Assembly (NCBI GenBank): GCA_043826135.1 | Contig: JBDRQT010000005.1 | Coordinates: 6,255-70,254, forward strand | Source: an archaeon | GTDB taxonomy: Archaea; Nanobdellota; Nanobdellia; Woesearchaeales; GW2011-AR15 | Reading direction: 5' to 3' | DNA: 64,000 bases | Shown: positions 3,647-47,223 of the stretch, piece after piece | Numbering within the stretch: position 1 is the first letter of the stretch | Layout of the letters: the number at the start of each line of letters is the position of its first letter | Notes under the pieces: model-generated | What the model was told of the DNA's origin: nothing | What the model saw: only the letters and a program-made list of their open reading frames with translations | Databases searched by the model: none | Program-made: the position numbers and the translations under genes

Positions 3647-3647
3647 T

Positions 3648-4667: not shown

Positions 4668-4908
4668 ATTAATATTCAATGCTAAGCAGTATATTAATTT
4701 TTCTTAGTTGAGTGATTTGAGTAATGTTGATTTATGAAATAATACTTGATAATATTCCAAAGAGAAGTCTGAAGAAGTACTCAACTTTTTTAATTTCTAA
4801 AATAAACAATCGCTTCTGTTTATAGATTCTGTAATTATCGCTTAAAAGAATCCTGCCGTAAGGATAACTCTAGTAAATTTAATAAACCTTAAACAGATAT
4901 CTGTTTGC

Positions 4909-28975: not shown

Positions 28976-31900
28976 TTAAGAAGCAACTTGGTCTGAGCCA
29001 GTTAAGAAATTTTCCACTTCTTTTGCAACATCCTTTGCCTTCTTTGCAGTTACACCAAAATCATCTTCACAGTCCATTAAAAGGATAGAGTAAGCATATT
29101 TGCCGTAGCTGCCTATAATGATTCCGGAATCAGTATACACGTTGTGCGGCCAATCATTTCCTTTTGCTGGATAGGCATAGGAGCCGCCTTTGCTGTAAAG
29201 AATATCATGAGATATTGCATCTGCAATACCAAACTTAAAATCAACTGCTCTCTTTAAAGTCTCCAGGGCTTTTGCTTTTTGAGTATCTGTTATTTTTAAA
29301 CCATTATATGTCAAATCTCCATTATATAACTTTTCGTAGAACATGACCATCTCACTTGCAGTTGCAGCTTTTTCACAGTCATCAGCAATTTCAATATTTT
29401 TTTGATTTCCTTCTTTATCTACAGCACTTGTGCAGGCTCTTGGCTTTTCAAATTGCTTTGGGGTATATCCGTCAGCAGTGAAATAGAACTGGCTAACGAA
29501 TGTTTTTGAAAGGCCGTTCTCTTGCAGGAATCTGTTGAATCCTTCCATCTCAGTACTGACAGTGTGTTTTTCAATTTCACTGAATACTCTTGATGTGTCG
29601 TAGTTGTCGCTGACGTTAATCATACCAGTAATATATCTTGCTGCATCTGGCCAGTATTCTTCAGGAACACTCATATAGTAATATACTGAAAGAGGACCCT
29701 TAAACATACTCATAGAATGGAGGAGCGAATTCTCATTCACTTTTATTTCTTCTTTGTTATCCAGATTTCTGAAGCTCGCTGCGCCGTAGCAATCTTTCAT
29801 TATTTTTTTGATATTGCTCTCAACTTCACTTGTGTCTTTTGCAGGTGTAGTGATAGGCACAGTAACTTCAGGAGCATTATCTGTATTTGCATTTTGGGCA
29901 GGTGTTGATGATTTTGACGGTTCTGCAGCTCTGTCTTCAACAATATCATATGAAAACTCAGGATATCTTTTCATTGTTTCATCATTTATTGTCAAAGCAA
30001 ATCTCAGATATAAAGGAGATCCAGATAATTTTTTATAACCAGAATCAACACAAAATTTGAACATATTTGAATTGCTGATAGTATATTGTTCTCCAGGGCA
30101 GCCGTCCAAATACCATACATGCTCAGGGTTTTCAGATAGAACTTTAATAACACAATCTCTATAGCTGGCGCCTGTTTGAACGCAGGCTGAAGCATCACTT
30201 ACTAATATTTCGCTGAACCTGAGCTCGTCATCAATTTTCTTCAAATCAATTTTGCTGTGGACTGTAAATGATGGATTAAGATAATAATAGCCCATCTTAT
30301 CTCCTTTTAGAAGCTCTTCAGGAATTGAGGAATAGTCTGGCTCCGATGTTCCAGAACTTTCAATCAAATGAAGGTATGTAAAGGTAGCGTCAGGATGGCC
30401 CATGTTCCAATCAAATATTCCATTTGATGTATGTGATGCAACTTGATTATTTCCAATGTATACGGCAACATGGTCTATTACAGCATTATTATCCCAATCA
30501 TAGAATATCAGATCTCCAATATCCAATTTGCTTGATGATTCAACCTTAATGCCAATTCCTTTGCTTATCAATAGATCTTTCAATCTCTGTGCACCAGGTT
30601 CTCCATAAGGTATGCATGTGCTTGGGTTATATCTGCAGTCAATAGTTAGTCCACCTTGCTTAAGTGAATACGATGCAAAATGTGCACAATCTGATCCTGA
30701 AATGTAGTTGCTTGGTGCCGTTGCGCCTGCATTAATCATGCCTGAACTGCACTCAGGTGATTCGCTATTTGTAAAAAAGCAGCCATCGTCGACTACTTTT
30801 GTTGCAAATTCCTTTGCATATGCAGCTATTTTTTTCCTGTCAAATCCTTGCGTTTCAGGTGGGGTTACAGTAGGAACATCATCACTGCATGTACTTTTAT
30901 AGTCATCTTCAAGCGTATGGAAGTCTTCAACATAGCTTTGTATCCTCATTATTAAATCAATATATCTGGGATCTCTTGCTCCCCAAAGATTCATGTAATC
31001 ATAAGCATTGCAGCCCCATCCATTGTAACCTCTGAGTGCGATGTCCCAGCCTTTATACACAACGTTTTTTGCAGGTATCCCTGTTCCATCATTAGGGCAA
31101 TAATATTTCTTTTCGCTGTTCAAGCAGTCGAAATATCCGCATTTTTCCCAGATTTCAAGAGCGCCGCATTCAATATTATCAACAAGCTGCCAGGCATCGA
31201 GCTCTCTTCCATCAATCCTGCTTTTTCCACATGCATTGAATGGCTCACCATAAGGAACATACCCTCGGTCTATCTGCATGATACCGACACCTCCATCATA
31301 TGACACTTTCACTTTTCCTTCAGCATCATAATGTTTAATCTGGCTTTCTTTATAGGCGATTGTTAGCAGCATTGAACCAGGCAAATCATACGCTTTTGCA
31401 ACCTCGCAAATCTTTTGCATCTGCTCATCTTGGGTCGCAGCAACTCTTCCTGTAATCTTGCTTCCATTAATTGATGCGACATAGATGCCGCCCATCATTA
31501 TTATCGAAAAGATTGCAATGTGCACAAGCTTCTTTTTTCCGAGAAACAAAATCAAGAGAGCAAATACAGCAAATGCAATAACTACCCATATAGAGAGAGG
31601 CTGCTCAGTATTGCTGTCAAGTATATTCTTGTCATAGTAATCACTCCTTTGACATTTGCCTGTGCAGCATGTCTGGTTATTAAATAATGTAAGTTCATCC
31701 TTGTCGCAGAATTCATTTCCAGAGCACTCAAAAAAATCGAAGTCATTGCAGGTATTTTCCTTGACATTTAGGTTGTCTTTAAGGCATTCATTGCAGCAGG
31801 TAATATTTCCTGTGTTTTGTGGTCCGATGCAGGTCTCATCTGGCGAGCATTCCAACATATCATAAAAACTGCATCCGAGATTATCTAAAGTGTCTTCAAA

Positions 31901-32437
31901 GCAACCTTCAGGAGGAATATCATAAAAATATCCAGTGCAGTCGGGATCACAGATATTATCATCTTCAATTCTGCAGAATCCATCCAAAGAACTTGGCTCG
32001 CAGTCTCCGCAAACGATTTCATTTTCAAAAATTTCACAATTGTCATTTGTGCAGGGTTCACATAAACCATTATTGTTGCACAAAGTTATAGGTTTGCTAT
32101 ATAGTAGGGTATCATTTCTATAGATATTGACTTTTTCTATCTTTGAAAAATCAGGGGTATAGTTTATCTCAGTGAAAGGTGGATAATTGCTGTTTGATTT
32201 CAGAATCAAATTTCCGGACATATCGAGAAATTCCAGTCTGAATGGCCTGTTGTATTCTTGATTTCCACTATAAGCAAGATAATATGGGTTCTGTTCAATT
32301 ACTTGTATATTTCGCAAATCAAGCGAATCATTCTCTTCAATATTTGTGATAAGTATCTTCAGATCATATGTTGCATATACAGAGCTTAGCAAGATAAGCA
32401 GCATCAATGCAATGGTTGTTTTTTTCATTCTATTCAC
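28976..32437 (-). CDS. 1153-aa multi-domain cell-wall hydrolase: Cys-rich ectodomain, 2 TM helices, lytic transglycosylase (SLT), papain-like amidase (Amidase_6/NlpC-P60 clan), class A beta-lactamase-like serine hydrolase domain
   Basis: SLT motifs AYKESQ, GGVGIMQI and LRGYNGWG. Amidase motifs SDCAHFASYSLKQGG ... GDLIFYDW..IDHVAVYIG..ASHTSN. Beta-lactamase-like motifs SMFK (SxxK), MINVSDNYD (SDN), ATASEMVMFYEKLYNG and YSKGGS (KxG). Confidence 0.8.
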   Translation of the reverse strand: MNRMKKTTIALMLLILLSSVYATYDLKILITNIEENDSLDLRNIQVIEQNPYYLAYSGNQEYNRPFRLEFLDMSGNLILKSNSNYPPFTEINYTPDFSKIEKVNIYRNDTLLYSKPITLCNNNGLCEPCTNDNCEIFENEIVCGDCEPSSLDGFCRIEDDNICDPDCTGYFYDIPPEGCFEDTLDNLGCSFYDMLECSPDETCIGPQNTGNITCCNECLKDNLNVKENTCNDFDFFECSGNEFCDKDELTLFNNQTCCTGKCQRSDYYDKNILDSNTEQPLSIWVVIAFAVFALLILFLGKKKLVHIAIFSIIMMGGIYVASINGSKITGRVAATQDEQMQKICEVAKAYDLPGSMLLTIAYKESQIKHYDAEGKVKVSYDGGVGIMQIDRGYVPYGEPFNACGKSRIDGRELDAWQLVDNIECGALEIWEKCGYFDCLNSEKKYYCPNDGTGIPAKNVVYKGWDIALRGYNGWGCNAYDYMNLWGARDPRYIDLIMRIQSYVEDFHTLEDDYKSTCSDDVPTVTPPETQGFDRKKIAAYAKEFATKVVDDGCFFTNSESPECSSGMINAGATAPSNYISGSDCAHFASYSLKQGGLTIDCRYNPSTCIPYGEPGAQRLKDLLISKGIGIKVESSSKLDIGDLIFYDWDNNAVIDHVAVYIGNNQVASHTSNGIFDWNMGHPDATFTYLHLIESSGTSEPDYSSIPEELLKGDKMGYYYLNPSFTVHSKIDLKKIDDELRFSEILVSDASACVQTGASYRDCVIKVLSENPEHVWYLDGCPGEQYTISNSNMFKFCVDSGYKKLSGSPLYLRFALTINDETMKRYPEFSYDIVEDRAAEPSKSSTPAQNANTDNAPEVTVPITTPAKDTSEVESNIKKIMKDCYGAASFRNLDNKEEIKVNENSLLHSMSMFKGPLSVYYYMSVPEEYWPDAARYITGMINVSDNYDTSRVFSEIEKHTVSTEMEGFNRFLQENGLSKTFVSQFYFTADGYTPKQFEKPRACTSAVDKEGNQKNIEIADDCEKAATASEMVMFYEKLYNGDLTYNGLKITDTQKAKALETLKRAVDFKFGIADAISHDILYSKGGSYAYPAKGNDWPHNVYTDSGIIIGSYGKYAYSILLMDCEDDFGVTAKKAKDVAKEVENFLTGSDQVAS

Positions 32438-33608
32438 ATGCCTTTAGCCTGCAGAATTGTGTAACTTGGTTTCTGCCTTCTGCAAACAAGTCTTCATAAT
32501 ATTCATAGCATACTCCAGGAGGTCCGCCATCGCTGTTTCCGATTGAATGGATGAACACATTCCTTCCACTAGGGCTCGGACTGAAATGCTCATAACAAGT
32601 TCTTATCCCAAAATAACTTATCTCTCCGCTGAGCGTTCCGGTTCCAGCATACATCCCCGTATGTCCGATATTGTTTCCTGCCTGGAAAACATCTCCTGGC
32701 TTAAGTGTATTTACATTAGAACCAAGCATAATAACTTTATCTGAATTCGATGAGCATTTGGTGGCGCCATGGCCTGAAAAACTTGAAAAACCTAATTGCT
32801 GGGTAATAACTGATCCGACAAATGTGGCGCAGGTGAGACCAATTCTGCAATCATTTGGAGGAAAGTATTGGCAAGCGATATAGTTTGCATAGCCGCAGTT
32901 GAGGAGATAAGGGCATCCCACAAATTTATCTGCGTATTCTATTAGATACGCACATTTTCCCTCTAGAGTTGGGCTTTCAGTTGTTACATCCGGAGGAATT
33001 GGTTCTTCAGAAGACGGTTCACTAGTGGATGGCTCCTGAGCAGATGGTTCTTGAGGTATCGGCTCTTGCGGCTCTTCAACAATTGGAGGGGGTTCAACAA
33101 ATTTTACCTCTTCTGCAGCGAAGTTATAATCTTTTCCACCAATATCCATTCTCAGGCTTTTTTTCGCTTTGCCGATAAATACAGTTTCTTCACTTTCATT
33201 TATTATATAGTAATCATAACCTATTTCAGGAATCTTTTCAGGGAAATTATCAAGATAACTAATGAATCTTTCTTCAAAACCTGATTTTATCTGGGCTTTC
33301 AGATCAGGGATGCAGTTTTTTGATTCAGTGTTCAGGAGCGGATATCCTTCAAATTCACCGCAACCTGTTGAAATGGCAATCTCATCGATTGATTCCTGAT
33401 AAGCCTTGTCTGCCGATTTGTCTATGTAATAAAGTGGAACTTCTCCGTGCTCATATGTTTCCATCAGAACAGCTTGTTTTTCTCCTATTGATTTTTCAAA
33501 TTTTGCGCTTTTGGTATGCACTGCAAAATAAAGCATGGGCAGAACTGCGAATATGAAAAGGATTGTTAGCATCAATACAAAAATACTACCTTTTCTCCCG
33601 TGTATCAT
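32430..33608 (-). CDS. NlpC/P60 cysteine peptidase with prepilin-like N-terminus and Pro/Glu-rich linker
   Basis: N-terminus GRKG/SIFVLMLTILFIFAVL. Linker PPPIVEEPQEPIPQEPSAQEPSTSEPSSEEPIPP. Catalytic region FVGCPY...GLTCATFVGSV...LKPGDVFQA..GHTGMYAG...FIHS. Confidence 0.8.
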   Translation of the reverse strand: MIHGRKGSIFVLMLTILFIFAVLPMLYFAVHTKSAKFEKSIGEKQAVLMETYEHGEVPLYYIDKSADKAYQESIDEIAISTGCGEFEGYPLLNTESKNCIPDLKAQIKSGFEERFISYLDNFPEKIPEIGYDYYIINESEETVFIGKAKKSLRMDIGGKDYNFAAEEVKFVEPPPIVEEPQEPIPQEPSAQEPSTSEPSSEEPIPPDVTTESPTLEGKCAYLIEYADKFVGCPYLLNCGYANYIACQYFPPNDCRIGLTCATFVGSVITQQLGFSSFSGHGATKCSSNSDKVIMLGSNVNTLKPGDVFQAGNNIGHTGMYAGTGTLSGEISYFGIRTCYEHFSPSPSGRNVFIHSIGNSDGGPPGVCYEYYEDLFAEGRNQVTQFCRLKACE

Positions 33609-34048
33609 TTGTACCCCTTAATCACTAGCTGAAGTTTGATAGCATCAGATTCACCTGGAAGATATATTGTTGAGTCCAGTAAATTGTCTTTTCCGGCAGA
33701 AATGCAGCTTCTGTCAAAAGCCGTTTTTTCATCAATGAGTAGCTTCCAGCACACATCGCTGCCGTAATAATCCTTCAGAAGATAACTAAATTCATCTTCA
33801 AAATAATTAATGTTATTTTGTTCATATGATTGTATCAGCAGATCAGATATTTCAGTATCATTTAGCTCTGTTCTAAGAATTGTCAGGAATACTTCATCAT
33901 TTCCGAGCCGGTTTACCTTGTCTTCAACAACAGTCTTATGACTGATCCCTTCATATCGCATTATAATTATCCATATCGTCATACCTATTATTAGTATAAG
34001 CCATGAGGCTATGTCATAGAATGATATTACCTGTGCTTTTTTATTCAT
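33605..34048 (-). CDS. prepilin-like protein
   Basis: MNKKAQ/VISFYDIASWLILIIGMTIWIII. 4-nt and 8-nt overlaps with neighbouring genes. Confidence 0.65.
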   Translation of the reverse strand: MNKKAQVISFYDIASWLILIIGMTIWIIIMRYEGISHKTVVEDKVNRLGNDEVFLTILRTELNDTEISDLLIQSYEQNNINYFEDEFSYLLKDYYGSDVCWKLLIDEKTAFDRSCISAGKDNLLDSTIYLPGESDAIKLQLVIKGYK

Positions 34049-34538
34049 TTTTGCTTATCACATGTATTTTTATTATGCCCGGGAACAAAATTCCTTTATT
34101 TCTAATGAGGACGGGCCTTCTGATTATTGATTTATCATACTGGTCAAAATTTGTCAGCGGAGACCACCTTTCATACCATATTTTATTCACGTAAAGTTCT
34201 CTGATGTCATTATCAGCAAGCGTAGTTAACTCAATTTTTGCCGCAATATTATTACCCTCACCGATAAGGAATGCTTTTTCAAAAGATTCCTGGGTTGCTT
34301 TGGTTACGTCAATTATTCCAGGAAATACCCTATTTGTTTGTGGGTCTTTATAGGCTAGAGCATCTGGAGAATAAATGATTCTCTGAAGTGTTATCTGATC
34401 ATTTATCTTATGGGAATCAAGAGCTGTGTCAATAAGATTTGAGTACATATACACAAAGATGATAAAAATGAGCGCAATATAAGGAAGCCTGATAATTGTG
34501 TTCCACAATATCTCATATGCATCTCCTTTTTTATTCAT
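34041..34538 (-). CDS. prepilin-like / N-terminally anchored protein
   Basis: MNKKGD/AYEILWNTIIRLPYIALIFIIFVYMY. Translationally coupled to its neighbours. Confidence 0.6.
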   Translation of the reverse strand: MNKKGDAYEILWNTIIRLPYIALIFIIFVYMYSNLIDTALDSHKINDQITLQRIIYSPDALAYKDPQTNRVFPGIIDVTKATQESFEKAFLIGEGNNIAAKIELTTLADNDIRELYVNKIWYERWSPLTNFDQYDKSIIRRPVLIRNKGILFPGIIKIHVISKNE

Positions 34539-34996
34539 TTTAATACTTCCTCTGTATTTATTATCGCGATAGGATTTATCCGTGCAGGCGTCTTCTTGAA
34601 TCCAAGTGCAAGAAGGTAGTTTTTCTCCTTATCTTCGTCAACAAGAGACGATTTGATTTTTTTGTATCTTATCTTCAGGCCCTCATCTTCAATGAAAGGA
34701 TATGATTTTCCAGTAAGTTCACCTTCTTTCGGATTGTAAACTGTCACTTTGTTCTTTTCAAATCTGACATCAAAATCAAATTCATTTTCAGTGTAGACAA
34801 AAAAGACATTGTTCGGAGCAGAGTGAAGGTTATTCATGACAAGAGCAAGGTCTTTTGCAAGATACCTTTTCTCGAAGTTGTTGTTGTTCAGAAGGGAATT
34901 TATCACGTATAATATAGACATAAGTATCACTGCAAGAAAGAACAGATTTATCAGCCACCAGAGTACTTCGTTGGTCTGGCCTCTTTTATGCAGCAT
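34535..34996 (-). CDS. prepilin-like protein (first gene of the distal transcription unit)
   Basis: MLHKRGQ/TNEVLWWLINLFFLAVILM. ATG 34996 lies 24-37 nt downstream of AAATAATATAAAC (TATA); the ORF-track start at 35014 is the alternative. Confidence 0.6.
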   Translation of the reverse strand: MLHKRGQTNEVLWWLINLFFLAVILMSILYVINSLLNNNNFEKRYLAKDLALVMNNLHSAPNNVFFVYTENEFDFDVRFEKNKVTVYNPKEGELTGKSYPFIEDEGLKIRYKKIKSSLVDEDKEKNYLLALGFKKTPARINPIAIINTEEVLK

Positions 34997-35249
34997 AGTC
35001 CTAAAAAAGAGCATAGGGTTTATATTATTTGCTCTAACTGTAGTTGTGTATATTTATTGTTTTCTTTGAACTGAGTATTTTTCTTTCCTGACGGCAGACG
35101 CCCAAATTTGCGGATTTGTGCTATGCGACAGCCCGAAGGGCGCGACCCCAGTTGCATCTGCGTCAAGAAAAATATTGTTTATTGTAGAATCTGCACAACT
35201 CCAGTTGCTCTAAGTAGGATTCAAATATAACCTAAATATTCTTTGTAGG

Positions 35250-35510: not shown

Positions 35511-35999
35511 TTAACCTAAAGATACACCAGGTCTTTCAATTATTGAGACAGTATCCCCCAATAATTCTACATGAAAATTCGTGACCCTTTCTGTTGGATT
35601 AAGAACAAGGTTCTCGATATGAAGTTTCTTTGTGCTAATTGAATACTCCAAATTCACGCATTTCTCAGTACTTTTTGGAGTGCATCCGTCAAGTTTGCAA
35701 GTGCATAGACAACTTAATCCGGTTTTGCACTGGGTAGGTCTATCGCTACTGGCAATATCAAATCCTTTGATTATATGTTTGTTGTCGATAAACAAAGGGA
35801 TGACAATAGGCGCTTCCATGTATTTTATTTCCTTGGCTAGCAGTTCCATTGAGTTAATTGTTGCTGGTTTTGCTCTCCCGCCGAGTAACTCATAGAGTTT
35901 TACAACAAGAGGCAGTACAAAAAGCAATACAACAACTGCAAAAAGTGCAATTTTTATCAGAAATTCTAAAGTAATTTCTCCTTTAATCGCATGCTTCAT
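35511..35999 (-). CDS. prepilin-like Cys-containing protein
   Basis: MKHAIKGE/ITLEFLIKIALFAVVVLLFVL. Cys cluster QCKTGLSCLCTCKLDGC. Confidence 0.65.
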   Translation of the reverse strand: MKHAIKGEITLEFLIKIALFAVVVLLFVLPLVVKLYELLGGRAKPATINSMELLAKEIKYMEAPIVIPLFIDNKHIIKGFDIASSDRPTQCKTGLSCLCTCKLDGCTPKSTEKCVNLEYSISTKKLHIENLVLNPTERVTNFHVELLGDTVSIIERPGVSLG

Positions 36000-36270
36000 C
36001 TGTAGTCTTCCATTCACCTGCTTCGCAGGTCCTTTTTTGATTGCTCACAGGATTGCATTCCACTTTTCCGTCCTCGCACTTTCTTCCAAAAGCCCTAAAT
36101 AGATCATCCAAGATATTTCCGCCTTCTTTAGCTCCTTCATCACGTATCCCAAGCATGCTATTTATCGTCGGCCTAAATAATGCATAGAACACCGCAATCA
36201 CAACGACTAGTACAACTAGCGCAAGAATAACCTTTACAAGCACTTCAAATTCTAATCCTTTCTTGTTCAT
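35983..36270 (-). CDS. small prepilin-like protein (95 aa) with 4 Cys
   Basis: MNKKG/LEFEVLVKVILALVVLVVVIAVF, then CEDGKVEC...CEAGEW..EAC. Confidence 0.65.
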   Translation of the reverse strand: MNKKGLEFEVLVKVILALVVLVVVIAVFYALFRPTINSMLGIRDEGAKEGGNILDDLFRAFGRKCEDGKVECNPVSNQKRTCEAGEWKTTDEACD

Positions 36271-36271
36271 C

Positions 36272-36997
36272 CTACTGGACATATATGAACGTGGCATTTA
36301 AATCTTTCTCTGACTTTAAACCCAAATCCGTTTTGGTAATCTCACCCAGGAATATGCCTCCGTTAGTATCTTTTTTAAACCATACAGCGTCAGTTATCTT
36401 GTCATAGTAGATGCCTTTGTCAAATTTCTCAAAATCAAATGACCTGACTTTTACATTGTTTATATCTTTTAAATTGTCTCCCCACATGATATTTGTAAAT
36501 CCTATCTGATTTTTCCAGTCCTCGTCAACAAATAGGTAGAAAACAAACTCCTTATTCTCGACTTTAGCAAGGATGAACGCATTCATAATCCCGTCATTTG
36601 GGTTCATGTTCTGTGAGATCTTTATTTTAGCATTTTTATCTGCCAGCTCAAGAAGTTCTGATGGTGAACTAGCATCTTGGAGGATATCAGGATCGACATA
36701 AGCTTCTGTAAATGGAATTCCTTGATAATATCCATGAGAGAAGAAAGTGACGCGCTTTCCATAATAATAATACTCCTGCTTTTTTCCGTCAAAGATGCTT
36801 AAAGTTTTTGTTGCCCTGTTTATATCTATAGTAATATCTTTTTGATGCTCAGAATTTCTGTTGTCGGAAATCCAATCAGATGGATCTTCTGTGAAATAAA
36901 CAGGTTCTGATTGCTTTGGGGTTGTGATCTTTATAATAACTACAATTAATATGATTACTGCAATAATTCCGCTTATCGTGATTGTCTTTTTTTCCAT
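36272..36997 (-). CDS. N-terminally anchored secreted protein, unknown function
   Basis: MEKKTITISGIIAVIILIVVIIKI. The start lies 1 nt after the stop of the 981-aa gene. Confidence 0.6.
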   Translation of the reverse strand: MEKKTITISGIIAVIILIVVIIKITTPKQSEPVYFTEDPSDWISDNRNSEHQKDITIDINRATKTLSIFDGKKQEYYYYGKRVTFFSHGYYQGIPFTEAYVDPDILQDASSPSELLELADKNAKIKISQNMNPNDGIMNAFILAKVENKEFVFYLFVDEDWKNQIGFTNIMWGDNLKDINNVKVRSFDFEKFDKGIYYDKITDAVWFKKDTNGGIFLGEITKTDLGLKSEKDLNATFIYVQ

Positions 36998-36998
36998 T

Positions 36999-39944
36999 TT
37001 AGCTACAGGTAAATGATTCGCTGCCATGCGCAGGCCATTTTAAGCAGGTGTTTTCTAGAGATGAATATAATAGATTTCCTGCAACACCACAAACCGCCCA
37101 GGATACAGGGGCAACAGTAGCGACAGGCGCGCCGACAACACTTGCAACGGCACCCGCAACTGTGCCAGAAGCGCATGCAAATGGTAGACCCCAGTTAAGG
37201 GCAGCATCACTGACTCCAAGCCATGCAGGTTCAACTCCTTTATAGCAATAGTTTGGATTTTCATTGTCCATCAGAGGATCAAACTCAATACATAGCGGTG
37301 TATATGGGTCGTTTGACCATGGCAGAGAGTCTCCAAACCCTTTTGGTTTGCAGTCTTTTATTATCTGGCCTGTATCAGAATCAATACCATAGAGCATTGG
37401 ATTCTGCCCATCAAAATTTTGAATTGTTGTATCATATACTGGATTGTATTTTCCTGTTTCATAAGTTGTATCTTTAAATTTAAGCTTTACCAGAAGGTCA
37501 TTGACACCAAGTGCATTGAACTGTTCATCACTTGGATTTCCATAGCATTCACATTGCGTGACTTTAATCATTACACTGGCTCCGCATGGGCTTACCAGAT
37601 GAAACCTTGTGTTTGGCTGGTCCTTCCAATACCAAACTTTGTCTCTAGCAAGGCTTAGATAATATCTATTTGCTTCAGGTACAAGTCCTAGGTATCTTTC
37701 AGTGTAATGTTTGTTCTGATAGTCTTTAGGCGGCTGCGCGCTTTCTTTATCTACCGGTTCCCACACTCCGCCAAAATAATTGAAATAATCAAGATATTTG
37801 TCTTTGTCTTTTGGCCACTGCCAGGTCTTTGTTAGGCTGTCATCAAACCTTACAACACCTTTGTATGGAGTTTTAAGCCCGATACTGTTAGTTCCAATAA
37901 AATAGAATTTCTCAGCCATATTAGCGGTTCTGTAGGTGCTTATCACCAATTCAGATGATAAGATAAATCTGTCAACAGATATGTCCTTAAAATTCATGTC
38001 CCTGGATGTTGGCCTGGGTTCAAGGACAATCTCTTTCATAATATTCTTTGCAATATCATCCATATCTTTATTTTCAAATTTATTTTTCAGTTTAGGATTC
38101 TTTTCCTGTTCTTCGAGCATCATTCCTAGAACAATACTTTTTCTAAGTTCATAGTCTCTCTTGTCTTTGCTGCCCATAGTGGATAATATTTCAGTATTCT
38201 TTAGGAAAATTGCTTGAAGTTCCTGTTTCCTCTGGTCACTGTCTACTTTATTTACTTCGTAGAGCTCAAGCATTTTGTCGTTTGACTGCGAACTAACCTT
38301 GAACATCCATCTGGTGTCAAATAACCCTGTTTTTAGATGTTCTTCAACACTTTCTGCAAGATATTCTGAAAATTTAGCATTGTTTTCCACTTGTGTAAAC
38401 GCGTTGACTGCATCCTGCTTGAATTGTGCTGAAAAGCCTGTATCGGTCATGGGAGCTTTGTTGGAGTCAAAATAGGAATCTGTTAGTGCAAGGAACTTTT
38501 CTTCATAATTGTATCTTTGGCCATTGGCCACATTTGCTTTTTCCGTATCCTCTTTATAATAATCATCGCTGATCATTGAGAAATATTTTGATATAATATA
38601 TTCTCCTCCGTATTTGACAATTACATAATCTTGGATGCCGCTATGAATATCTTCGATTTTTGTGTCTTTTCCTATGATGAAATTAGTAGTTTTTATAGTT
38701 GCTTGAGCAAGTTCATCAATTGCAGCATTGAAGTTTTTTATATTAGTAAAGTGAAAATTCAAGAGTGATTTTTGGAGAGTTATTGCTTTGGTTATTATTT
38801 CTCCCAAGACCAGTCTACCTTGTGGGGAATTTAGTACTGAATGCAAAGGTCCACCTGCTTTTGGTATCATCCTCACAGCAAACAAAAATCCTTCAACTGA
38901 TAAAAATGTCCCGAATTCACTGAAACTATTGTATCTCCAAAGTGAATCTTCCCCATCAGGAAACTGCTCATAATATATAATATACTTCGGATCACCATGA
39001 GGGAGGAAAGCCTTCGTAAACCATGTATTGTCAACATCCTGCGGCAAACTAAAATCCTTTATCATCATGGTGAACATCAAAGCATCAGCAGGAGTCTTGC
39101 ATTTCGCAAAATCATCAGTCACATAGACCTTGTCTACGCCTTTTGCATCTCCGCATATCCTTACGACATTGTTGTTCTGCCTGTTATTCTGGTTTGTGAT
39201 TGTTCCTCCTTTGATGCTATATTCCCAGTTTGCGACATTCCAGAAATCCCACCAAGCGTTTCCAGTCAAATCTTTTAATGATTTTTGGCATAAATCATCA
39301 CATAAATTAGAATCTGCCTGGAGGAGCTCAAACCCCTTTGGCAGGTCACTCTTCGTGACTTTTGTTGTTGTTGGAATTCCTGAAAAATCCATTGCATAGC
39401 ATCTGATATTCTCTCCTCTCATCTCCCTGAACATGTCAAGGCAGTCTACAGTGTCTTTTGCCAGTTGCTTTAGCAGCAGGTCTTTATTAGGTTCATTTAT
39501 CAAGATAAGATTCGTATCCATGATTGTTGGAATGACGCTTGTGTCTCCGTATTTTCTTCCGAAGCTTTGATAGGATCCTAGCTGGTCATAGCCTGCAGGA
39601 GGATTTCCTTTTACAATGGTTCCTGATTGGGTCACATACCAGTTTGCGTCAAGTTCATCCGCAATATTTACGTTGTCATCCCATTTCCAGCTATTCCCTG
39701 TGCTGTATGTATCAAACCATGCAAGCCTATTTACTGCGTATGTGAGCGCTTTCATTGAATTAATTGCTTCTTTATCCTCTCCTTCGAGCGCAGCATACCT
39801 GTCAATAAGATCCTGATCCAGGATACTCTTATCTATCAGTGCAAGAATTGGCTTGATTCCTTCTTTATAGTGGACTGCAATCTGGAGAGCTGCAAGTATG
39901 ACTATCAAAGTAAGAATGGCTTTTACTGCATTGTTCATCTCCAT
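36999..39944 (-). CDS. 981-aa surface protein with N-terminal anchor and C-terminal Gly/Ala-rich hydrophobic segment
   Basis: N-terminus MEMNNAVKAILTLIVILAAL. C-terminus ...ACASGTVAGAVASVVGAPVATVAPVSWAVCGVAGNLLY.. plus Cys. No known domain recognised. Confidence 0.75.
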   Translation of the reverse strand: MEMNNAVKAILTLIVILAALQIAVHYKEGIKPILALIDKSILDQDLIDRYAALEGEDKEAINSMKALTYAVNRLAWFDTYSTGNSWKWDDNVNIADELDANWYVTQSGTIVKGNPPAGYDQLGSYQSFGRKYGDTSVIPTIMDTNLILINEPNKDLLLKQLAKDTVDCLDMFREMRGENIRCYAMDFSGIPTTTKVTKSDLPKGFELLQADSNLCDDLCQKSLKDLTGNAWWDFWNVANWEYSIKGGTITNQNNRQNNNVVRICGDAKGVDKVYVTDDFAKCKTPADALMFTMMIKDFSLPQDVDNTWFTKAFLPHGDPKYIIYYEQFPDGEDSLWRYNSFSEFGTFLSVEGFLFAVRMIPKAGGPLHSVLNSPQGRLVLGEIITKAITLQKSLLNFHFTNIKNFNAAIDELAQATIKTTNFIIGKDTKIEDIHSGIQDYVIVKYGGEYIISKYFSMISDDYYKEDTEKANVANGQRYNYEEKFLALTDSYFDSNKAPMTDTGFSAQFKQDAVNAFTQVENNAKFSEYLAESVEEHLKTGLFDTRWMFKVSSQSNDKMLELYEVNKVDSDQRKQELQAIFLKNTEILSTMGSKDKRDYELRKSIVLGMMLEEQEKNPKLKNKFENKDMDDIAKNIMKEIVLEPRPTSRDMNFKDISVDRFILSSELVISTYRTANMAEKFYFIGTNSIGLKTPYKGVVRFDDSLTKTWQWPKDKDKYLDYFNYFGGVWEPVDKESAQPPKDYQNKHYTERYLGLVPEANRYYLSLARDKVWYWKDQPNTRFHLVSPCGASVMIKVTQCECYGNPSDEQFNALGVNDLLVKLKFKDTTYETGKYNPVYDTTIQNFDGQNPMLYGIDSDTGQIIKDCKPKGFGDSLPWSNDPYTPLCIEFDPLMDNENPNYCYKGVEPAWLGVSDAALNWGLPFACASGTVAGAVASVVGAPVATVAPVSWAVCGVAGNLLYSSLENTCLKWPAHGSESFTCS

Positions 39945-39945
39945 T

Positions 39946-40086
39946 TTAATTCAAAAAAGGTATAAAATCGCTTATCTCATATATTTTCCCTGAAAATATT
40001 CCAATCATAAGTATTATTATGACTATTGCAATTAAGGTTATGATTATCCAGCCAGCAAAATCCCATTGTATCCCCTTATCCGACAA
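39946..40086 (-). CDS. tiny prepilin-like protein (46 aa)
   Basis: The TTG at 40086 lies 9 nt after AGGAG and gives MSDKG/IQWDFAGWIIITLIAIVIIILMIG. The ORF-track form (to 40161) would overlap the upstream gene by 86 nt. Confidence 0.45.
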   Translation of the reverse strand: MSDKGIQWDFAGWIIITLIAIVIIILMIGIFSGKIYEISDFIPFLN

Positions 40087-40930
40087 GTGTGTCACACTCC
40101 TGAGAGACCATTCCCTGGTCCATAAATTTAATTGTGTTGATAAACCTTTGTTCATAATCACCGCCGTTGCTCATAAAATTTGGAACAACAAAATCCAGAA
40201 CCTGTTTTCCCAAGGTTTTGATATATAACTCATTTGTGGCAGTGAATACAACAGCATATTTGTCATTGAAATTGTAATCATAGTAATCCTGGTTGAAATG
40301 ATCAAGCAAGTCCTGGGTATATTCATAATAGGTAATATCCCTGCCAAGAGGTCCACTAGTCCTCATGAATTCATCAAGAGTAGCAGGTTCAGGAAGTATC
40401 TCGTTTGAATACACTTCTCCGAATTTATCCTTGACTTCTCCGGAATATTCAAAGACAGTGCATATGACGCATTGCCTTTCTGTTGTATAATCACTAAATA
40501 CGCTCACTTCACCAGCTACGAACTGCTCCCAGCAGTCGAATATATGCTCAGCCATCACCTCATTTACCTGAGCAAGATATTCACAATTTTGATAGACTCC
40601 GTGATCTGACTTGCACGAATCAAAACTGACTTTCTTATTTTCTTTCTTAAAAGGGATTTCGTATTTTGATTTTCCGCTTTCTTCAGAATATCCCTCCTTT
40701 GTAAATCTGACATACCTTGTCGGGCAATCGGTTCTCCAAATATCTACATTGGAGAGGGGCATCCTAACTTTAGAATTTGCGATGACAGAAAGTTGGCATG
40801 CTGCCTTGTCATAACTCTTGGATGCAGTTGTCATATAGATGAAATAGATGACTCCAAGAACAACCAATAGCCCAATGACTGCATAAATCAAATTTCCTGT
40901 CTCATCCAAAATAACAGCTCCTTTTTTCAT
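40076..40930 (-). CDS. prepilin-like protein (284 aa)
   Basis: MKKGA/VILDETGNLIYAVIGLLVVLGVIYF. Several Cys. Confidence 0.65.
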   Translation of the reverse strand: MKKGAVILDETGNLIYAVIGLLVVLGVIYFIYMTTASKSYDKAACQLSVIANSKVRMPLSNVDIWRTDCPTRYVRFTKEGYSEESGKSKYEIPFKKENKKVSFDSCKSDHGVYQNCEYLAQVNEVMAEHIFDCWEQFVAGEVSVFSDYTTERQCVICTVFEYSGEVKDKFGEVYSNEILPEPATLDEFMRTSGPLGRDITYYEYTQDLLDHFNQDYYDYNFNDKYAVVFTATNELYIKTLGKQVLDFVVPNFMSNGGDYEQRFINTIKFMDQGMVSQECDTLVG

Positions 40931-40933
40931 GTT

Positions 40934-41050
40934 TCAGTCAATATTTAGTATAGGTAATAGATTGTTTTTCAGGGCAACCAGGAAAAGTATTACAAAAATG
41001 ACAACAACAACTATTGAGATCCACATGCTGGTAATGCCCCTCTTTTTCAT
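40934..41050 (-). CDS. 38-aa prepilin-like micro-protein
   Basis: Hand-translated: MKKRG/ITSMWISIVVVVIFVILFLVALKNNLLPILNID*. Below the ORF-track cutoff. The stop lies 3 nt before the next start. Confidence 0.4.
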   Translation of the reverse strand: MKKRGITSMWISIVVVVIFVILFLVALKNNLLPILNID

Positions 41051-41125
41051 AGGGTATTTGTTATAAATAGAGTATATAATGTTTTCTATGAGAAGATGAA
41101 TTTTGGGTTTACAAATATTTAGAAA

Positions 41126-41389
41126 TTATTCAGTTTTTGGCTTGAACAATTCAACGCAGCAGAATTTAGTTGATGTGATATCTTCGCAGTTTGTACCTGG
41201 GATGTTGACTTCAAAAGTCTCGCATGCAGAGTCGCAGTGCGCGCCTGACCCCTGGGTTGTGCAATCCCTCACATTGTTTGCAAAAATCCTGGTCCTTCCG
41301 CCAAATATTGCGATTACAACAATTAACACAATAAGAGCTATTGCTGCAACAATTACAGTGTTAATAGAGATAGACTGCGCTTTTCTCAT
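41126..41389 (-). CDS. mini-pilin candidate (87 aa, 6 Cys)
   Basis: MRKAQ/SISINTVIVAAIALIVLIVVIAIF, then a roughly 55-aa domain with 6 Cys ending in CC. Paralog of 41487..41759. Confidence 0.75.
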   Translation of the reverse strand: MRKAQSISINTVIVAAIALIVLIVVIAIFGGRTRIFANNVRDCTTQGSGAHCDSACETFEVNIPGTNCEDITSTKFCCVELFKPKTE

Positions 41390-41486
41390 TGTTAAATAGT
41401 CTTTTGCCTAGCAGGTATTTAAAAGTTTCGAATATCGTAAAGATATTTATACAGAGATATCTGTTTTGATCGAAACAATCTGGCTT

Positions 41487-41759
41487 TTAGCCAGCATTGA
41501 CGCAGCAGACTTTTGTCTTGTCGACTTCAGTTCCTTTATAGCAGCTGTAGTCCCCTCTTACTCTACCATAAGGCGCAGCGCAATTCTCCTCAACGGTATT
41601 ATCAGCAATGCATGTTCCGCCGTTGTTCTCGCAGGAATCAGTATTTCGCTTGAACCTTGACATGTTTCCTGTGAAGATCATCATGATAAGGACCATGACG
41701 ATGAGAGCGATTGCTGCTACTACTATTGTGTTTATTGAGATTGATTGTGCTTTTTTCAT
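41487..41759 (-). CDS. mini-pilin candidate (90 aa, 6 Cys)
   Basis: MKKAQ/SISINTIVVAAIALIVMVLIMMIF, then 6 Cys with the same terminal CC. Confidence 0.75.
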   Translation of the reverse strand: MKKAQSISINTIVVAAIALIVMVLIMMIFTGNMSRFKRNTDSCENNGGTCIADNTVEENCAAPYGRVRGDYSCYKGTEVDKTKVCCVNAG

Positions 41760-41832: not shown

Positions 41833-44800
41833 TTATTCCCCCACACAAACTGCTCTATTAATTCCACCAGGTAGGTTCTTACAATTTCTTCCTAGATTAC
41901 TGCAAAAATCTGTTGTCCATAAACCGTTTGCATCACATGTGTAAACTGCATCCCAATTCCTGTTTCCACAAACACTATCACCTATATTATATTCTTTATC
42001 AATATTTGGATCTGCTGAATTAAAAAACAATGGAACAGAAACACCACATATTGCTGAAGATGCGCCTGCTCCTATTGCAGCTCCCCAACCAAAACCAGCC
42101 CATGTTAGAGTCCCCAAGCTAGCAGTACCAACTCCAACTCCTCCAAGCAATGCACCTCCTAAAGTAAGAACAGCACCACAAACTCCACCCAAAGTTGTAA
42201 TAGCTTGAGCGTTCATGCTTATATCTCCTTTGCATGTTGTTTGACTATCATTATAACAATAAGAATACCCATCATCTGTCTCTTTGCAACCACTAAAGCA
42301 AGGATAGTTTTGCCATTTAGAATCTTGGCAAATATACAAAGTTCCTTCATGCCAATTCTTTTCAGGATTTCCGCATATTCTCGTTCCTTGCTTGAAAGTG
42401 TAACCATCAGGATGAGTGCTGTCAGCTGTATACCCAGGATCACTCTGCAAATCTACGCTTCCTTTACAAAAATTCTCTGCAAAATCAACACTAGTCCCTT
42501 TTAGATTTAGGCAGCTTGCTCTTTCATAATTGCATGGTATTTGAGGTAAGGATTGATCAACAATATTTACTCCATTTGGATTCAACTTTGTCTTGACACC
42601 TAAACAAAATTGACCTGCAGTTTTGTCTCCTGGAACTCCTTTGTCATCAATTTGTGAAACACAAGCATTAGGTTCTCCTGATGCGAATTTAACATCACAA
42701 CAACTAAAAGAGGAATCACACAAAGCGTTTAATTCATCTCTATTGCATTTTCCATATTTATCCGCTGATATAAATTGAAGATTTTGTGCACATTTTCCAA
42801 ATTCTGCTTTTTCACTAATACTATTTGGATCCACAAAACAGTCTTTGGCTGGATCTATACAACAACCAACAATACCTTTACAAAGATTTGCATTAGTTTG
42901 AGTACATAAAGCCTTATCTACAACTTGACCTTTGTAATCTGCTGACAGACCATATTTTGTGCAGTCAGCCGAACCACCAACAGCCTGCATTTCTTCTGTG
43001 GTAAAATATTGAACAGGACAATAATTCAAAGTACTATCCTTTGTTCCCACACAGCATAATACATTTGTACCAGTGAGAGTTGGCGATCCAGGAGGAAGAG
43101 GTTGTGAGGGGCCACCAGGTCCTCCTTGTTCCATTGTTTGACCACAACAAATTTTTCCAATCGTGCAATCTACTGAAATAGTGTTATAAGTTGCATCAAC
43201 AACATCAGTACATGAAGTACTTTCGACACAATTTCCTATTTTTTTTGGCTTTGGATCAGAGTCAGTATTAATAGTATATTCACAGACAGCAGCAGCTTTC
43301 TTTAGAGCAATTGGCGACACCTGCATATTGCATTCTTCTTTCTTGAAATAGCCATTGCAGCAGTAAATCTGATCCTCTTTACCTGTATAAGGAGTGTTGC
43401 CGCAATAACATCCATTTTCCCCGTTAACAGTTGCATCAACTCCTGGTGTAAGTTTTCCAGGGCATATTTTGCATTTTTCAGAATTTCCATTTTTTTGACC
43501 GTTCTGGCATGTTGCACAAATGCCCCCAGTTGATAATTCACTATCAACATCTAGTAAGTATTTATCGCACTTGCCTTTGTAATCAAAGTAAATTAAGTTA
43601 TTCATTTCATTAATTTGGGTACTATCAGGATTACTCTTATCTCCATTAATATCACACAATGTACCCTCCCGTGAAAATCCAAGTTTGTCCCTTAATATTG
43701 CTAAGCAAGTAACAAGATAAGAGGCATCTCCAGTTCTTGGACCTCCGCAGCCATTAAGATAATTCAGCCTATCCTGAAGATTCGTACTGCATTTCTCAAA
43801 CCCGCCTTTAATTCCAGTGCCTTTAATTTCCAGATATGCATTTGCATATGCGTCAGCCTCTTTCATATCACTTCCAATCAGCCCTTTATTATTGACGATT
43901 ACGCCGACAGCATTCTCCCCTGCTTTAAGTTTACCCTCGCTTATCTTTGCAGAAATTGATATAAGGAATCTTGTGGGATTTAGTCTCCATAAACATATAT
44001 CACCACTGCTGCACGTAATTCCATCACCAGAATCAACTTTGTAATCTTTTTCAGGGCCAAGTGGTCCTAGCAGATTTCCTCCACATAATCCATTTTTGTT
44101 ACTTATAATTGTTGCCGGGTCAAATCCAGCATTAGTATCTCCTTTAGAACATGCTGCACCTGTAGGTTTCTGGGAGTCATAAAATATTGGAGCGAGCAAA
44201 TTCACTGAAGTTTTGGCATCTTTATTAAATGTATCAATGCAACTATCTCCTTTTTCATTCAAGACAAAATTAAATGCAGAATATCCTCCAACATATTCGC
44301 TTGGAGATCCGGTACTGGAATCAAATTTTATTGTATCTGAGGTAGAGTCAAAGATAACTTTGCTGAATCCATAAGTTTTTGGAGTAGCCATAATGGACTT
44401 GATTAATGCTATGTTGGTAGGGTCATCAAACTTATCTGTAATTGCACATGGTTCGCCTGTTATGGATTCAGCAATTCCATCTCCAACAGTCTCGTCAAAA
44501 AAGAACGAGAATACTTGTTCAGGAGTTGGTGAAGTTGTTGATTCTTGACCAAAAATTAACTTATAATATTCAGGATTGGTCTTCACTACATTTGCAAGAA
44601 GATATTTTCCAATAATTGTTTTATATTGGGCATAACAATTTGGCAAAGGATTTGTTTTTGTAATGTCATCAGCGTCCCAATCTTTAATCATTGCTTTGCA
44701 CTGGTCTACTGCTTTTTTATTTGTGCCTTTGGTCTCATCAAACACAGTATGAGGAAAACCAGCTTCATATTCAATATTATATTTTCTGTCTTTAACTTCC

Positions 44801-45951
44801 GGCGTTCCGCTTTGAACAGATCCGTGAAGTGCTTCAGTGCCAACATCGGTAGTGTCAGAAGCGGATTTTTCATCAAAGAATAGGCAATGGGCATTAGCCA
44901 TGTCTTCAGGTTTTAAATATGCACACTTACCCTCGGCACAGATTGAATTAGTGCTAGATTGCCATACGAACGTAACAGGTTGAGATTCTTCACTTGCGGC
45001 GATGGGTTGAATAGGCGACTGATAAACATAGTGCAATGGGATTCTAAATAAATTTGGAGGATTGTCTATGAGTTCTCCCTCCTTCCCGCAAGCAACCACA
45101 GCAATCGCAGTAAAATGTCCGACACTTGCGCTATAATAGAAATAGTCATCCTCTACCCTGAATGGCAGCGAAGTATAAGTGAACCATATGCCTGCATCTT
45201 CATCATAGTAGCCTAGTTTAAGTTCCTCTGGATTATATCCGACAGGAATATCATTTTTGCTTATCCTGATAGTGACAGTAAGAGGTGGGTCGAATGTCGC
45301 TCCGTCGGGCAGGCCTTCATATGCGACTTCTCCTACAACAACGCCATTATGCAGGCCGTTAAATTCCTTGTCCAGTGTTTTTATAGATACAACTTCAACT
45401 GGGTTTCCGTTCTTATCAAGGACAATTGTATCCTTGTCTGCCTTCATGACAAAATCATCATCCTGTGTGAGAAGAACAGTGCCGGCTGACATTATTCCAT
45501 TAGGGGTCTCGACAATTGTAGTGCTCCTGAATTTATATACAAAATCATGCAGGTCAATCTCATCACTGCCATGCTTTACATTTATCGGAAAAGAAAGCTC
45601 CACATATAGCTGGTTTTCGTTTATCGTTACTTTAGATGCAGGAGGTTCATATTCAAGATTATATCCCTTGAATATTCCAAAATCAATGCAGTCAAAAAGT
45701 CTTGAGTCGATATATGCTTCAAGGTCTTTTTCACTGTTCTGCAGACCGAAATTCTCTATTGCCTTAAGAGTTGTCTGTTCAAGGCAGCCTTCGACATAAA
45801 TCTTTAGGTTGCTTCTCATGCCAGAGAATTCAACGCTCTGGCTTTTTTCCCTTAGAAGAGTGCCCTGATCTCCAGAGTACAGGAAAAGACCGACAGTTAA
45901 AACTAAGACTAATCCGATTATAACATAAAGAGTTATGCTCCCCTTCCCCAT
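41833..45951 (-). CDS. 1372-aa Cys-rich surface protein with prepilin-like N-terminus and C-terminal glycine-zipper hydrophobic segment
   Basis: MGKG/SITLYVIIGLVLVLTVGLF. The N-terminal module is shared with 4909..6744. More than 80 Cys by eye in the C-terminal two-thirds. GGVCGAVLTLGGALLGGVGVGTASLGTLTWAGFGWGAAIGAGASS lies near the end. Confidence 0.8.
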   Translation of the reverse strand: MGKGSITLYVIIGLVLVLTVGLFLYSGDQGTLLREKSQSVEFSGMRSNLKIYVEGCLEQTTLKAIENFGLQNSEKDLEAYIDSRLFDCIDFGIFKGYNLEYEPPASKVTINENQLYVELSFPINVKHGSDEIDLHDFVYKFRSTTIVETPNGIMSAGTVLLTQDDDFVMKADKDTIVLDKNGNPVEVVSIKTLDKEFNGLHNGVVVGEVAYEGLPDGATFDPPLTVTIRISKNDIPVGYNPEELKLGYYDEDAGIWFTYTSLPFRVEDDYFYYSASVGHFTAIAVVACGKEGELIDNPPNLFRIPLHYVYQSPIQPIAASEESQPVTFVWQSSTNSICAEGKCAYLKPEDMANAHCLFFDEKSASDTTDVGTEALHGSVQSGTPEVKDRKYNIEYEAGFPHTVFDETKGTNKKAVDQCKAMIKDWDADDITKTNPLPNCYAQYKTIIGKYLLANVVKTNPEYYKLIFGQESTTSPTPEQVFSFFFDETVGDGIAESITGEPCAITDKFDDPTNIALIKSIMATPKTYGFSKVIFDSTSDTIKFDSSTGSPSEYVGGYSAFNFVLNEKGDSCIDTFNKDAKTSVNLLAPIFYDSQKPTGAACSKGDTNAGFDPATIISNKNGLCGGNLLGPLGPEKDYKVDSGDGITCSSGDICLWRLNPTRFLISISAKISEGKLKAGENAVGVIVNNKGLIGSDMKEADAYANAYLEIKGTGIKGGFEKCSTNLQDRLNYLNGCGGPRTGDASYLVTCLAILRDKLGFSREGTLCDINGDKSNPDSTQINEMNNLIYFDYKGKCDKYLLDVDSELSTGGICATCQNGQKNGNSEKCKICPGKLTPGVDATVNGENGCYCGNTPYTGKEDQIYCCNGYFKKEECNMQVSPIALKKAAAVCEYTINTDSDPKPKKIGNCVESTSCTDVVDATYNTISVDCTIGKICCGQTMEQGGPGGPSQPLPPGSPTLTGTNVLCCVGTKDSTLNYCPVQYFTTEEMQAVGGSADCTKYGLSADYKGQVVDKALCTQTNANLCKGIVGCCIDPAKDCFVDPNSISEKAEFGKCAQNLQFISADKYGKCNRDELNALCDSSFSCCDVKFASGEPNACVSQIDDKGVPGDKTAGQFCLGVKTKLNPNGVNIVDQSLPQIPCNYERASCLNLKGTSVDFAENFCKGSVDLQSDPGYTADSTHPDGYTFKQGTRICGNPEKNWHEGTLYICQDSKWQNYPCFSGCKETDDGYSYCYNDSQTTCKGDISMNAQAITTLGGVCGAVLTLGGALLGGVGVGTASLGTLTWAGFGWGAAIGAGASSAICGVSVPLFFNSADPNIDKEYNIGDSVCGNRNWDAVYTCDANGLWTTDFCSNLGRNCKNLPGGINRAVCVGE

Positions 45952-45976
45952 TTACTATATTCTCTAATTCTATTAG

Positions 45977-45984
45977 TATATAAA
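45977..45984 (-). promoter_or_regulatory. box A / TATA element for the 1372-aa gene
   Basis: Minus-strand AAAATTTATATAC lies 26-33 nt upstream of ATG 45951. An oligo-T run (minus strand, about 46178-46185) follows the stop of the upstream gene. Confidence 0.45.
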
Positions 45985-46206
45985 TTTTATTGTCGAGGTG
46001 CGGAGAAAGGGATTAAATTTAGAGTATCTCCCATTATAATATTGTTTTTATAAGTAAGTGTGGGCAAAGCAGGTTGGATGTTTACATAGGGATATCACTA
46101 ACACTCTCACATCTTTTGGAGGCTTATGAACAGAATTTGTGCCGCAAGACTTCTGAAGACAGCAAGATAGGCGGCTCCTAAAAAAAATAATATTTTTTAT
46201 TCAAAT

Positions 46207-47222: not shown

Positions 47223-47223
47223 C

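Follow-up and report, generated by a model that had tools for sequence, protein, structure and literature searches.

The stretch of DNA analysed here (the window) comprises 64,000 nucleotides from an archaeon of the Woesearchaeales (GW2011-AR15), whose assembly (GCA_043826135.1; 1.88 Mb, 69 contigs) is about 95% complete. On the reverse strand of the window, positions 32430-33608 hold an open reading frame (ORF) encoding a protein of 392 amino acids (aa; P0001), the N-terminus of which, MIHGRKG, is followed by a 23-residue hydrophobic helix. Its start is well defined, as the ATG overlaps the stop codon of the upstream gene in the form ATGA. An earlier note on this DNA had described the product as an NlpC/P60 peptidase with a prepilin-like N-terminus and had proposed that it, along with proteins of 1372 and 611 aa encoded elsewhere in the window, could be processed like a pilin and displayed on a filament. 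The three N-termini quoted there are all correct.

The predicted parts of the 392-aa protein follow one another along the reverse strand. The leader MIHGRKG (residues 1-7, positions 33588-33608) is predicted, from the alignment of family leaders, to be of class III type and cut after Gly7. The hydrophobic helix SIFVLMLTILFIFAVLPMLYFAV (residues 8-30, 33519-33587) is the sole transmembrane-like segment in a segment count and lies within a long helix (residues 5-80) of the AlphaFold2 model. Both belong to a carrier module (residues 1-170, 33099-33608), delimited by profile search and by the AlphaFold2 model (confidence score pLDDT ~72), in which the long helix leads into a loop with the invariant Cys83 and Cys99, a second helix (residues 103-119) and a beta meander (residues 131-167). 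Behind the module, a Pro/Glu-rich linker (residues 171-214, 32967-33098) is predicted to be disordered, with pLDDT below 50 over residues 169-214. The remainder (residues 215-392, 32433-32966) is a putative, divergent NlpC/P60-like cysteine peptidase domain with many conserved cysteines, assigned on a triad of catalytic residues and on remote homology. The codons of this triad are at 32829-32831 (Cys260), 32661-32663 (His316) and 32547-32549 (His354).

The leader and the carrier module

A profile of residues 1-170 was searched against 1.84 billion representative proteins and matched 1,597 of them at E <= 1e-3, of which 866 reach E <= 1e-10. The 150 best matches listed range from 127 to 1782 aa in length, and in these proteins the matching region lies at the N-terminus or close to it. 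We counted leader columns in 152 full-length representatives of the family that are at most 50% identical to one another. The column of Gly7 holds G in 62, A in 52, S in 23 and K in 4 of them, G/A/S making up 97% of the non-gap sequences, and K or R fills each of the two columns before it in 141 of 143 sequences. The residue at +1 varies (Q 28, S 22, M 22, A 16). Because a small residue is fixed at one column in sequences this divergent, we take the leader to have the form of the archaeal class III signal peptide as defined previously (PMC4858521; PMC13705601). This form, a short basic stretch with K/R-[G/A/(S)] ahead of about 20 hydrophobic residues, is found in MIHGRKG/SIFVLMLTILFIFAVLPMLYFAV. 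Similarly, 11 of 12 homologues have K/R-[GAS] ahead of the helix or are truncated at the N-terminus; in the twelfth (P0005) the parser took a later lysine, and KRA/K fits by eye as well. The bacterial type IV pilin motif G/(F,M)xxxE (IPR012902), with its Glu at +5, was not found, as residues +1 to +5 read SIFVL and there was no Pfam match at E <= 10.

Motif enrichment was measured over ORFs with no more than two hydrophobic segments, one of them N-terminal. G/A/S follows the last K/R in 18 of the 22 such ORFs in the window, compared with 55 of 243 (23%) outside the 150-kb contig to which the window belongs (Fisher p = 4e-8), and 28 of the 98 class III-like N-termini of this kind in the genome are on that contig. 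The ORF exists as the earlier note described it, and neither this enrichment nor the Gly7 column is what chance would produce. The assignment of the N-terminus as a class III-type leader is well supported by these comparisons.

Sampling of the phylum found the carrier module in 192 of 301 genomes and 146 of 225 genera, almost always as one copy per genome and in reading frames of 192 to 1860 aa. The source genome likewise has one copy, with no second copy found in it. The named homologues are all from Woesearchaeota, Nanoarchaeota, Iainarchaeum or metagenome-assembled genomes (MAGs) labelled only as "archaeon". When the 93 longer members were scanned against Pfam, the domains they carried were Peptidase_M23 (17 members), SLT (11), VanY and Peptidase_M15 (10 each), NlpC/P60 and Peptidase_C39_2 (five each) and Amidase_2 and Amidase_3 (two each); others had lysozyme-like, glucosaminidase, 3D or CHAP domains, and seven had the non-catalytic fn3. 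The catalytic domain begins near residue 200-225 of these proteins. One homologue of 1543 aa (L009, 6743-11374) has the carrier, a canonical NlpC/P60 domain, SLT and a C-domain of the P0001 type in a single chain; its contig is labelled as a Methanosarcinales MAG, a label that looks doubtful because every other relative is DPANN. In another (L010, 1111 aa), which has SLT and NlpC/P60 domains, the N-terminus matches the carrier profile with an hhalign probability of 97%.

The C-terminal domain

The earlier label of NlpC/P60 peptidase holds in part. Pfam identified no NlpC/P60 domain in the 392-aa protein, even at E <= 10, and the PF00877 match at this locus belongs to the next gene (28976-32437). 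A PDB sequence search with the protein returned nothing significant, and NCBIfam gave a weak match to MepS (residues 240-323, E = 0.076). What supports the label is a Cys-His-His triad and homology that is remote and transitive. The motifs GLTCATFVGS (C260), GHTGMY (H316) and FIHS (H354) are conserved without exception in 12 homologues, and in the AlphaFold2 model a helix (residues 260-272) begins with Cys260 and a strand with His316. The same GLTCATFVGS motif is present in a 3374-aa Iainarchaeum protein (L011) that matches PF00877 above the cut-off (6.9e-7, 29.6 bits) and in which the NlpC/P60 domain is followed by Amidase_3 and glucosaminidase domains. The His-to-His spacing in L011 is 12 residues, which is canonical for NlpC/P60; P0001 has an insertion of 26 residues between its second and third catalytic residues. 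In addition, L010, from Woesearchaeota, has a CHAP match at 1e-4, and hhalign aligned the domain profile to canonical NlpC/P60 domains with a probability of 95.7% (E = 8.8e-9), over only 33 columns. The hhalign probability for the family against the NlpC/P60 domain of the next gene was 5%; the two domains are therefore not close paralogues.

The C-domain thus shares with the NlpC/P60 family (PF00877; E. coli MepS/Spr) a Cys at the start of a helix (GLTCATFV), a His (in GHTGMY) preceded by an LxPGD motif and, in FIHS, a third His, but differs from it in being unmatched by Pfam, in its 26-residue insertion, in its many extra cysteines and in having no structural match. Eight further conserved cysteines in the C-domain of P0001 fit an extracellular location. 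On the strength of the triad and the remote homology we consider residues 215-392 to be probably NlpC/P60-like. The same Cys-His-His C-domain is present in P0011 ("archaeon" HOD20_00360, 502 aa), where it comes after a dissimilar class III-like N-terminus (MINSKRG/VESVEVW...) and an insert rich in Cys, and this protein looks like an independent fusion of the C-domain to an N-terminus of that type.

Type IV filament machinery and the gene cluster

The source genome encodes a single A24 prepilin peptidase (C7:2535-3407, reverse strand; PF01478 at 1e-10), which has both Asp motifs (D20 and GGGD79-82), and several sets of secretion ATPase and platform proteins. The carrier is tied to such machinery in two compact genomes of 0.6-0.8 Mb (G184 and G231; loci L046 and L047), where it belongs to a contiguous, colinear type IV filament (T4F) operon. 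The order is a T2SSE ATPase of 770-782 aa, a multi-pass membrane protein of ~710 aa (the pair at 5806-10352 of L046 and 11799-16239 of L047), seven or eight further genes of which most have class III-like leaders and, as the last gene, a carrier of 240-262 aa without an enzyme. Five small proteins of this operon are colinear orthologues of window genes, and G231 has an A24 peptidase gene 3.3 kb away. In the source genome the orthologue of the ATPase (932 bits) is at C67:11973-14285, where it adjoins a giant paralogue, and the orthologue of the membrane partner (606 bits, seven hydrophobic segments) is at C52:19180-21381. The association of carrier, ATPase and platform that is contiguous in G184 and G231 is therefore dispersed in the source genome, as is the peptidase gene.

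The membrane partner, of ~710-730 aa, has a weak likeness to T2SSF (phmmer, 8.6e-6 to one T2SSF protein) and may represent a divergent platform family. Judged by ORF length, a T2SSE ATPase of roughly 740-790 aa is present in most of 40 sampled relatives, and in three relatives examined an ATPase of this size is followed by a multi-pass membrane protein of ~710-730 aa. In G191 the ATPase gene adjoins that of the partner, yet both are 30 kb from the pilin cluster. The carrier and the small class III-like genes remain syntenic in SI047_bin43 (L006), on the contig of P0005 and on a distant Woesearchaeota contig (L013). The contig of P0005 (JGI 3300072015) has a 382-aa Amidase_2 protein roughly in the place of the 159-aa class III-like protein of the window, which suggests a second cargo slot, and at 4913-6310 of L013 an AAA ATPase (PF00004) and a prenyltransferase/terpene-cyclase-like protein are found among the class III-like genes. 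Pfam pilin models matched neither the small ORFs of the window nor the pilin-like genes beside the ATPases of the source genome, and because they miss the latter they are uninformative here. We regard the membership of the carrier in a T4F system as well supported by the comparative evidence.

The 392-aa ORF is part of a 23-kb run of co-directional genes that extends on the reverse strand from 51660 down to 28976, most products of which start with a short basic leader ending in G/A/S, followed by a hydrophobic helix. At its head (46207-51660) are the gene for a 977-aa protein with a Sec-type signal and TSP3 repeats and class III-like genes of 189, 336, 181 and 157 aa. The gene for the 1372-aa giant follows (41833-45951), its product having the leader MGKG/SITLYVIIG and a Cys-rich C-terminus. 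The next span (35511-41759) has further class III-like genes of 168, 104, 251, 981 and 284 aa, together with two tandem genes for Cys-rich, mini-pilin-like proteins of 87 aa (41126-41389) and 90 aa (41487-41759). These two have a common leader and helix (KA/QSISINT.VVAAIALIV) and a Cys-rich head of ~55 residues ending in CC, and are candidates for the major subunit; the 90-aa protein has a weak Pfam match to AtDEF-like (defensin-like). Three small class III-like genes of 147, 165 and 159 aa (KKA/Q, KKG/D and KRG/Q; 33605-35014), which have colinear orthologues in the ATPase-linked operon of the relatives, then lead to the 392-aa ORF. The run ends with the gene already noted at 28976-32437, the product of which (P0013, 1153 aa) has a Sec-type signal, a Cys-rich region and two transmembrane segments; the signals of the 1153- and 977-aa proteins read VYA/TY and AHA/ED. 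With its SLT-like motifs, NlpC/P60 domain (residues 580-674; PF00877, 6e-7) and beta-lactamase-like domain (residues 936-1119; PF13354, 5e-8), this archaeal protein joins three murein-related modules.

The region 2665-6744 of the window is a shorter second copy of part of the cluster (41833-48234). It comprises a second copy of the 336/181/157-aa trio (343, 175 and 157 aa; 2665-4679, reverse strand) and the gene for the 611-aa paralogue of the giants (4909-6744, forward strand; leader MKS/QVTVFIIL), and it includes the conserved long leader MKC.K.K.FEHFR.RRFQKK[AS]/QL. Six paralogues on the contig, the 1372- and 611-aa proteins among them, have a common leader (KA/Q, KG/S, KS/Q) and ~250 similar residues behind it; on C67, a seventh large protein, of 1423 aa, starts with a leader of this kind, and outside homologues of the 1372-aa protein retain KRG/S, KKG/K, KKG/K and KKA/Q. 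The leader architecture that the earlier note attributed to the two larger proteins is therefore borne out, with the correction that the alignment of paralogues places the cut of the 611-aa protein at MKS/Q and not at MKSQ/V. Beyond the window, the same contig (74733-135341 in window numbering) has class III-like giants of 1379, 1615, 755 and 467 aa and a run of small genes at 115296-118638. Other genes in the context of the window encode an MBF1-like protein and gyrase A.

A proposed pilin-like carrier of murein hydrolases

Searches of the source genome found no genes for a SEDS glycosyltransferase, PBP transpeptidase or Mur ligase, and control genomes responded to the same searches. The hydrolases can therefore have no murein wall of the cell's own to serve, and the likely substrate is bacterial murein. 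We give an even chance to the reading that the 392-aa protein is a modular, pilin-like carrier of a T4F system that undergoes class III processing and presents a murein peptidase; its cleavage, entry into the filament, activity and target are what we infer from the sequence comparisons. The protein would be inserted into the membrane, and the 7-residue basic leader would be removed after Gly7 by the single A24 prepilin peptidase of the genome. By its hydrophobic N-terminal helix it would join a filament whose assembly would fall to the conserved secretion ATPase (~770 aa) and its membrane partner (~730 aa), possibly as a minor or tip subunit, as suggested by its bulk and by the absence of an acidic residue near +5. 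The Pro/Glu linker of ~45 residues would keep the disulfide-rich, NlpC/P60-like Cys-His-His peptidase off the carrier. Since the producer makes no murein, the enzyme would act on bacterial walls, its partners probably being the adjacent SLT, NlpC/P60 and beta-lactamase-like protein and the giant adhesin-like paralogues. The proposal of pilin-like processing and display in the earlier note thus gains from the archaeal class III form of the leader, the A24 peptidase and the ATPase-linked operon of the relatives, but not from the fold searches.

Several results weigh against this reading. Neither Pfam nor NCBIfam gave a significant match for the 392-aa protein. Three Foldseek runs (the full model against PDB and BFVD, and the N-domain model against PDB) returned nothing at E <= 0.001, and with models of moderate quality (pLDDT ~72) there was no fold match to pilins or to NlpC/P60; the N-domain, in which three to four strands are modelled, matched a pseudopilus chain only at E = 3.9. 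The order of elements in the predicted structure is compatible with a pilin "lollipop" plus a grafted module, which the fold search does not establish. Residues +1 to +5 have none of the Q/E seen in many of the small neighbors. No T4F ATPase, platform or peptidase gene is found within the window, and Pfam does not recognize the ~710-aa partner as T2SSF. Lastly, a T2SSE gene is within 10 kb of the carrier gene in 2 of 40 relatives with large contigs (distances read by hand), and the linkage of carrier and ATPase, which was seen only in compact genomes, is therefore loose.

The lack of a pilin fold in Foldseek, of a match to Pfam pilin models and of Q/E at +1 to +5, together with the length of the hydrophobic segment (23 residues), would also suit a signal anchor that stays uncleaved, in which case the protein would be a type II membrane protein or an accessory of the machine and KK[GAS] would reflect topology and not processing. 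FlaF and FlaG of the archaellum, which resemble archaellins but are not filament subunits, provide a comparison. We consider this explanation unlikely. The positive-inside rule accounts for the K/R columns, and so for the lysines, but not for G/A/S at one fixed column in 97% of sequences, nor for a motif that occurs in only 23% of comparable N-termini elsewhere in the genome; moreover, the silence of Pfam pilin models says little when the pilin-like genes beside the ATPase loci of this genome are missed as well.

Cleavage might also be followed by something other than a long filament, the helix anchoring the protein in the membrane or making it part of a short surface assembly, similar to a pseudopilus or a bindosome, so that the hydrolase is kept at the cell surface. 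The bindosome of the Sulfolobales, whose class III sugar-binding proteins need the T4F core without a long pilus (PMC13705601), is a precedent, a flexible linker of 45 residues suits a tethered enzyme, and the pilin cluster is often distant from the ATPase. Such an assembly is nonetheless improbable, given that the carrier gene keeps the last place in an operon which, in compact relatives, also holds the ATPase and many small pilin-like genes, and that it occurs once per genome, as a dedicated structural subunit would.

Far less probable is a function in the service of the producer, whereby the cysteine peptidase would remodel the cell's own envelope for passage of the filament or trim pilins. 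In bacteria, operons for pili and for secretion frequently include a lytic transglycosylase of their own. Envelope remodelling or pilin trimming of this sort has been suggested for transglutaminase-like peptidases linked to euryarchaeal pili (Makarova et al. 2016, PMC4858521). The carrier, however, bears murein-specific M23, SLT, VanY, Amidase_2 and Amidase_3 domains in other genomes, and the absence of SEDS, PBP transpeptidase and Mur ligase genes led us to reject remodelling of the cell's own wall. We also rejected, as hardly credible, an ordinary Sec signal peptide cut by signal peptidase I with release of a soluble enzyme: the neighboring 1153- and 977-aa proteins do carry Sec-type signals, but the hydrophobic core of about 23 residues is long for such a signal, the homologues have no conserved small-x-small site after the helix, and the conserved 140-residue module runs straight on from it.

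Delivery by a pilin-like carrier, which the earlier note called unusual, is less so in principle, as both bacteria and archaea offer parallels. PilB-vWA and PilC-lectin of Streptococcus sanguinis are modular type IV pilins, of a kind widespread in bacteria (Raynaud et al. 2021, PMC8179133). These pilins have in common with the 392-aa protein a class III leader, a small N-terminal pilin-type module, a linker and a grafted functional module; their proposed location is the filament tip, and their many architectures include one with a peptidase (PMC8179133). Unlike them, the 392-aa protein has a leader of archaeal type (KK[GAS], no Glu5 and no match to the N-methylation motif), its carrier is a separate family without a Pfam model, the cargo of that family consists almost entirely of murein hydrolases, and the host is an archaeon without murein. 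Among archaea, class III signal peptides are established for the sugar-binding proteins of the bindosome (Saccharolobus GlcS/AraS; PMC13705601). These too are functional proteins other than pilins with a class III leader, cut in their case by PibD, and likewise depend on a T4F core possibly encoded elsewhere in the genome (PMC13705601). The 392-aa protein differs in that its cargo is a hydrolase and not a solute-binding domain, in its conserved 140-residue carrier domain and in the position of its gene inside a pilin cluster and not beside an ABC transporter; we found no solute-binding protein domain in it and no transporter beside its gene.

Large extracellular murein lytic transglycosylase (SLT) proteins are known from Woesearchaeota and Pacearchaeota (Castelle et al. 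2021, PMC8204110; Vigneron et al. 2022, PMC9723730), as are archaeal peptidoglycan hydrolases that kill bacteria (PMC12352652). Only 32% of archaeal peptidoglycan hydrolases were found to have Sec or Tat signals, and no other type of signal was reported (PMC12352652). The lineages, the classes of enzyme and the bacterial walls inferred as targets in these three studies correspond to those considered here. In term searches, "pili" and "pilin" were absent from all three papers and "class III" from PMC12352652, and none of the papers in the collection searched combines Woesearchae*, pilin and peptidoglycan. What is added here is the link of murein hydrolases to a pilin-like carrier and a T4F operon.

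The presence of the carrier in about two thirds of the sampled relatives, and of the T4F operon in two relatives with small genomes, suggests a surface device aimed at bacteria. More tentatively, and at somewhat less than an even chance, we propose that much of the phylum (Woesearchaeota-type and probably Pacearchaeota-type genomes) has a conserved T4F operon ending in a single-copy "carrier pilin", with a constant module and exchangeable murein hydrolases, and that with this filament, as a wall-breaching organelle, ultrasmall archaea would attach to bacteria, feed on them or kill them. The hosts and lifestyles of Woesearchaeota and Pacearchaeota are mostly unknown, and the murein hydrolases of these lineages have been taken to hint that they interact with bacteria, the route to the target being left open. 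A class III-type carrier that is encoded once per genome, in a T4F operon, offers both a delivery route and a searchable marker. It would extend the idea of the "functionalised T4F" in archaea from nutrient-binding proteins to lytic enzymes, and a wall-breaching organelle, if true, would provide a molecular handle on the long-suspected, unproven episymbiosis or predation of archaea on bacteria.

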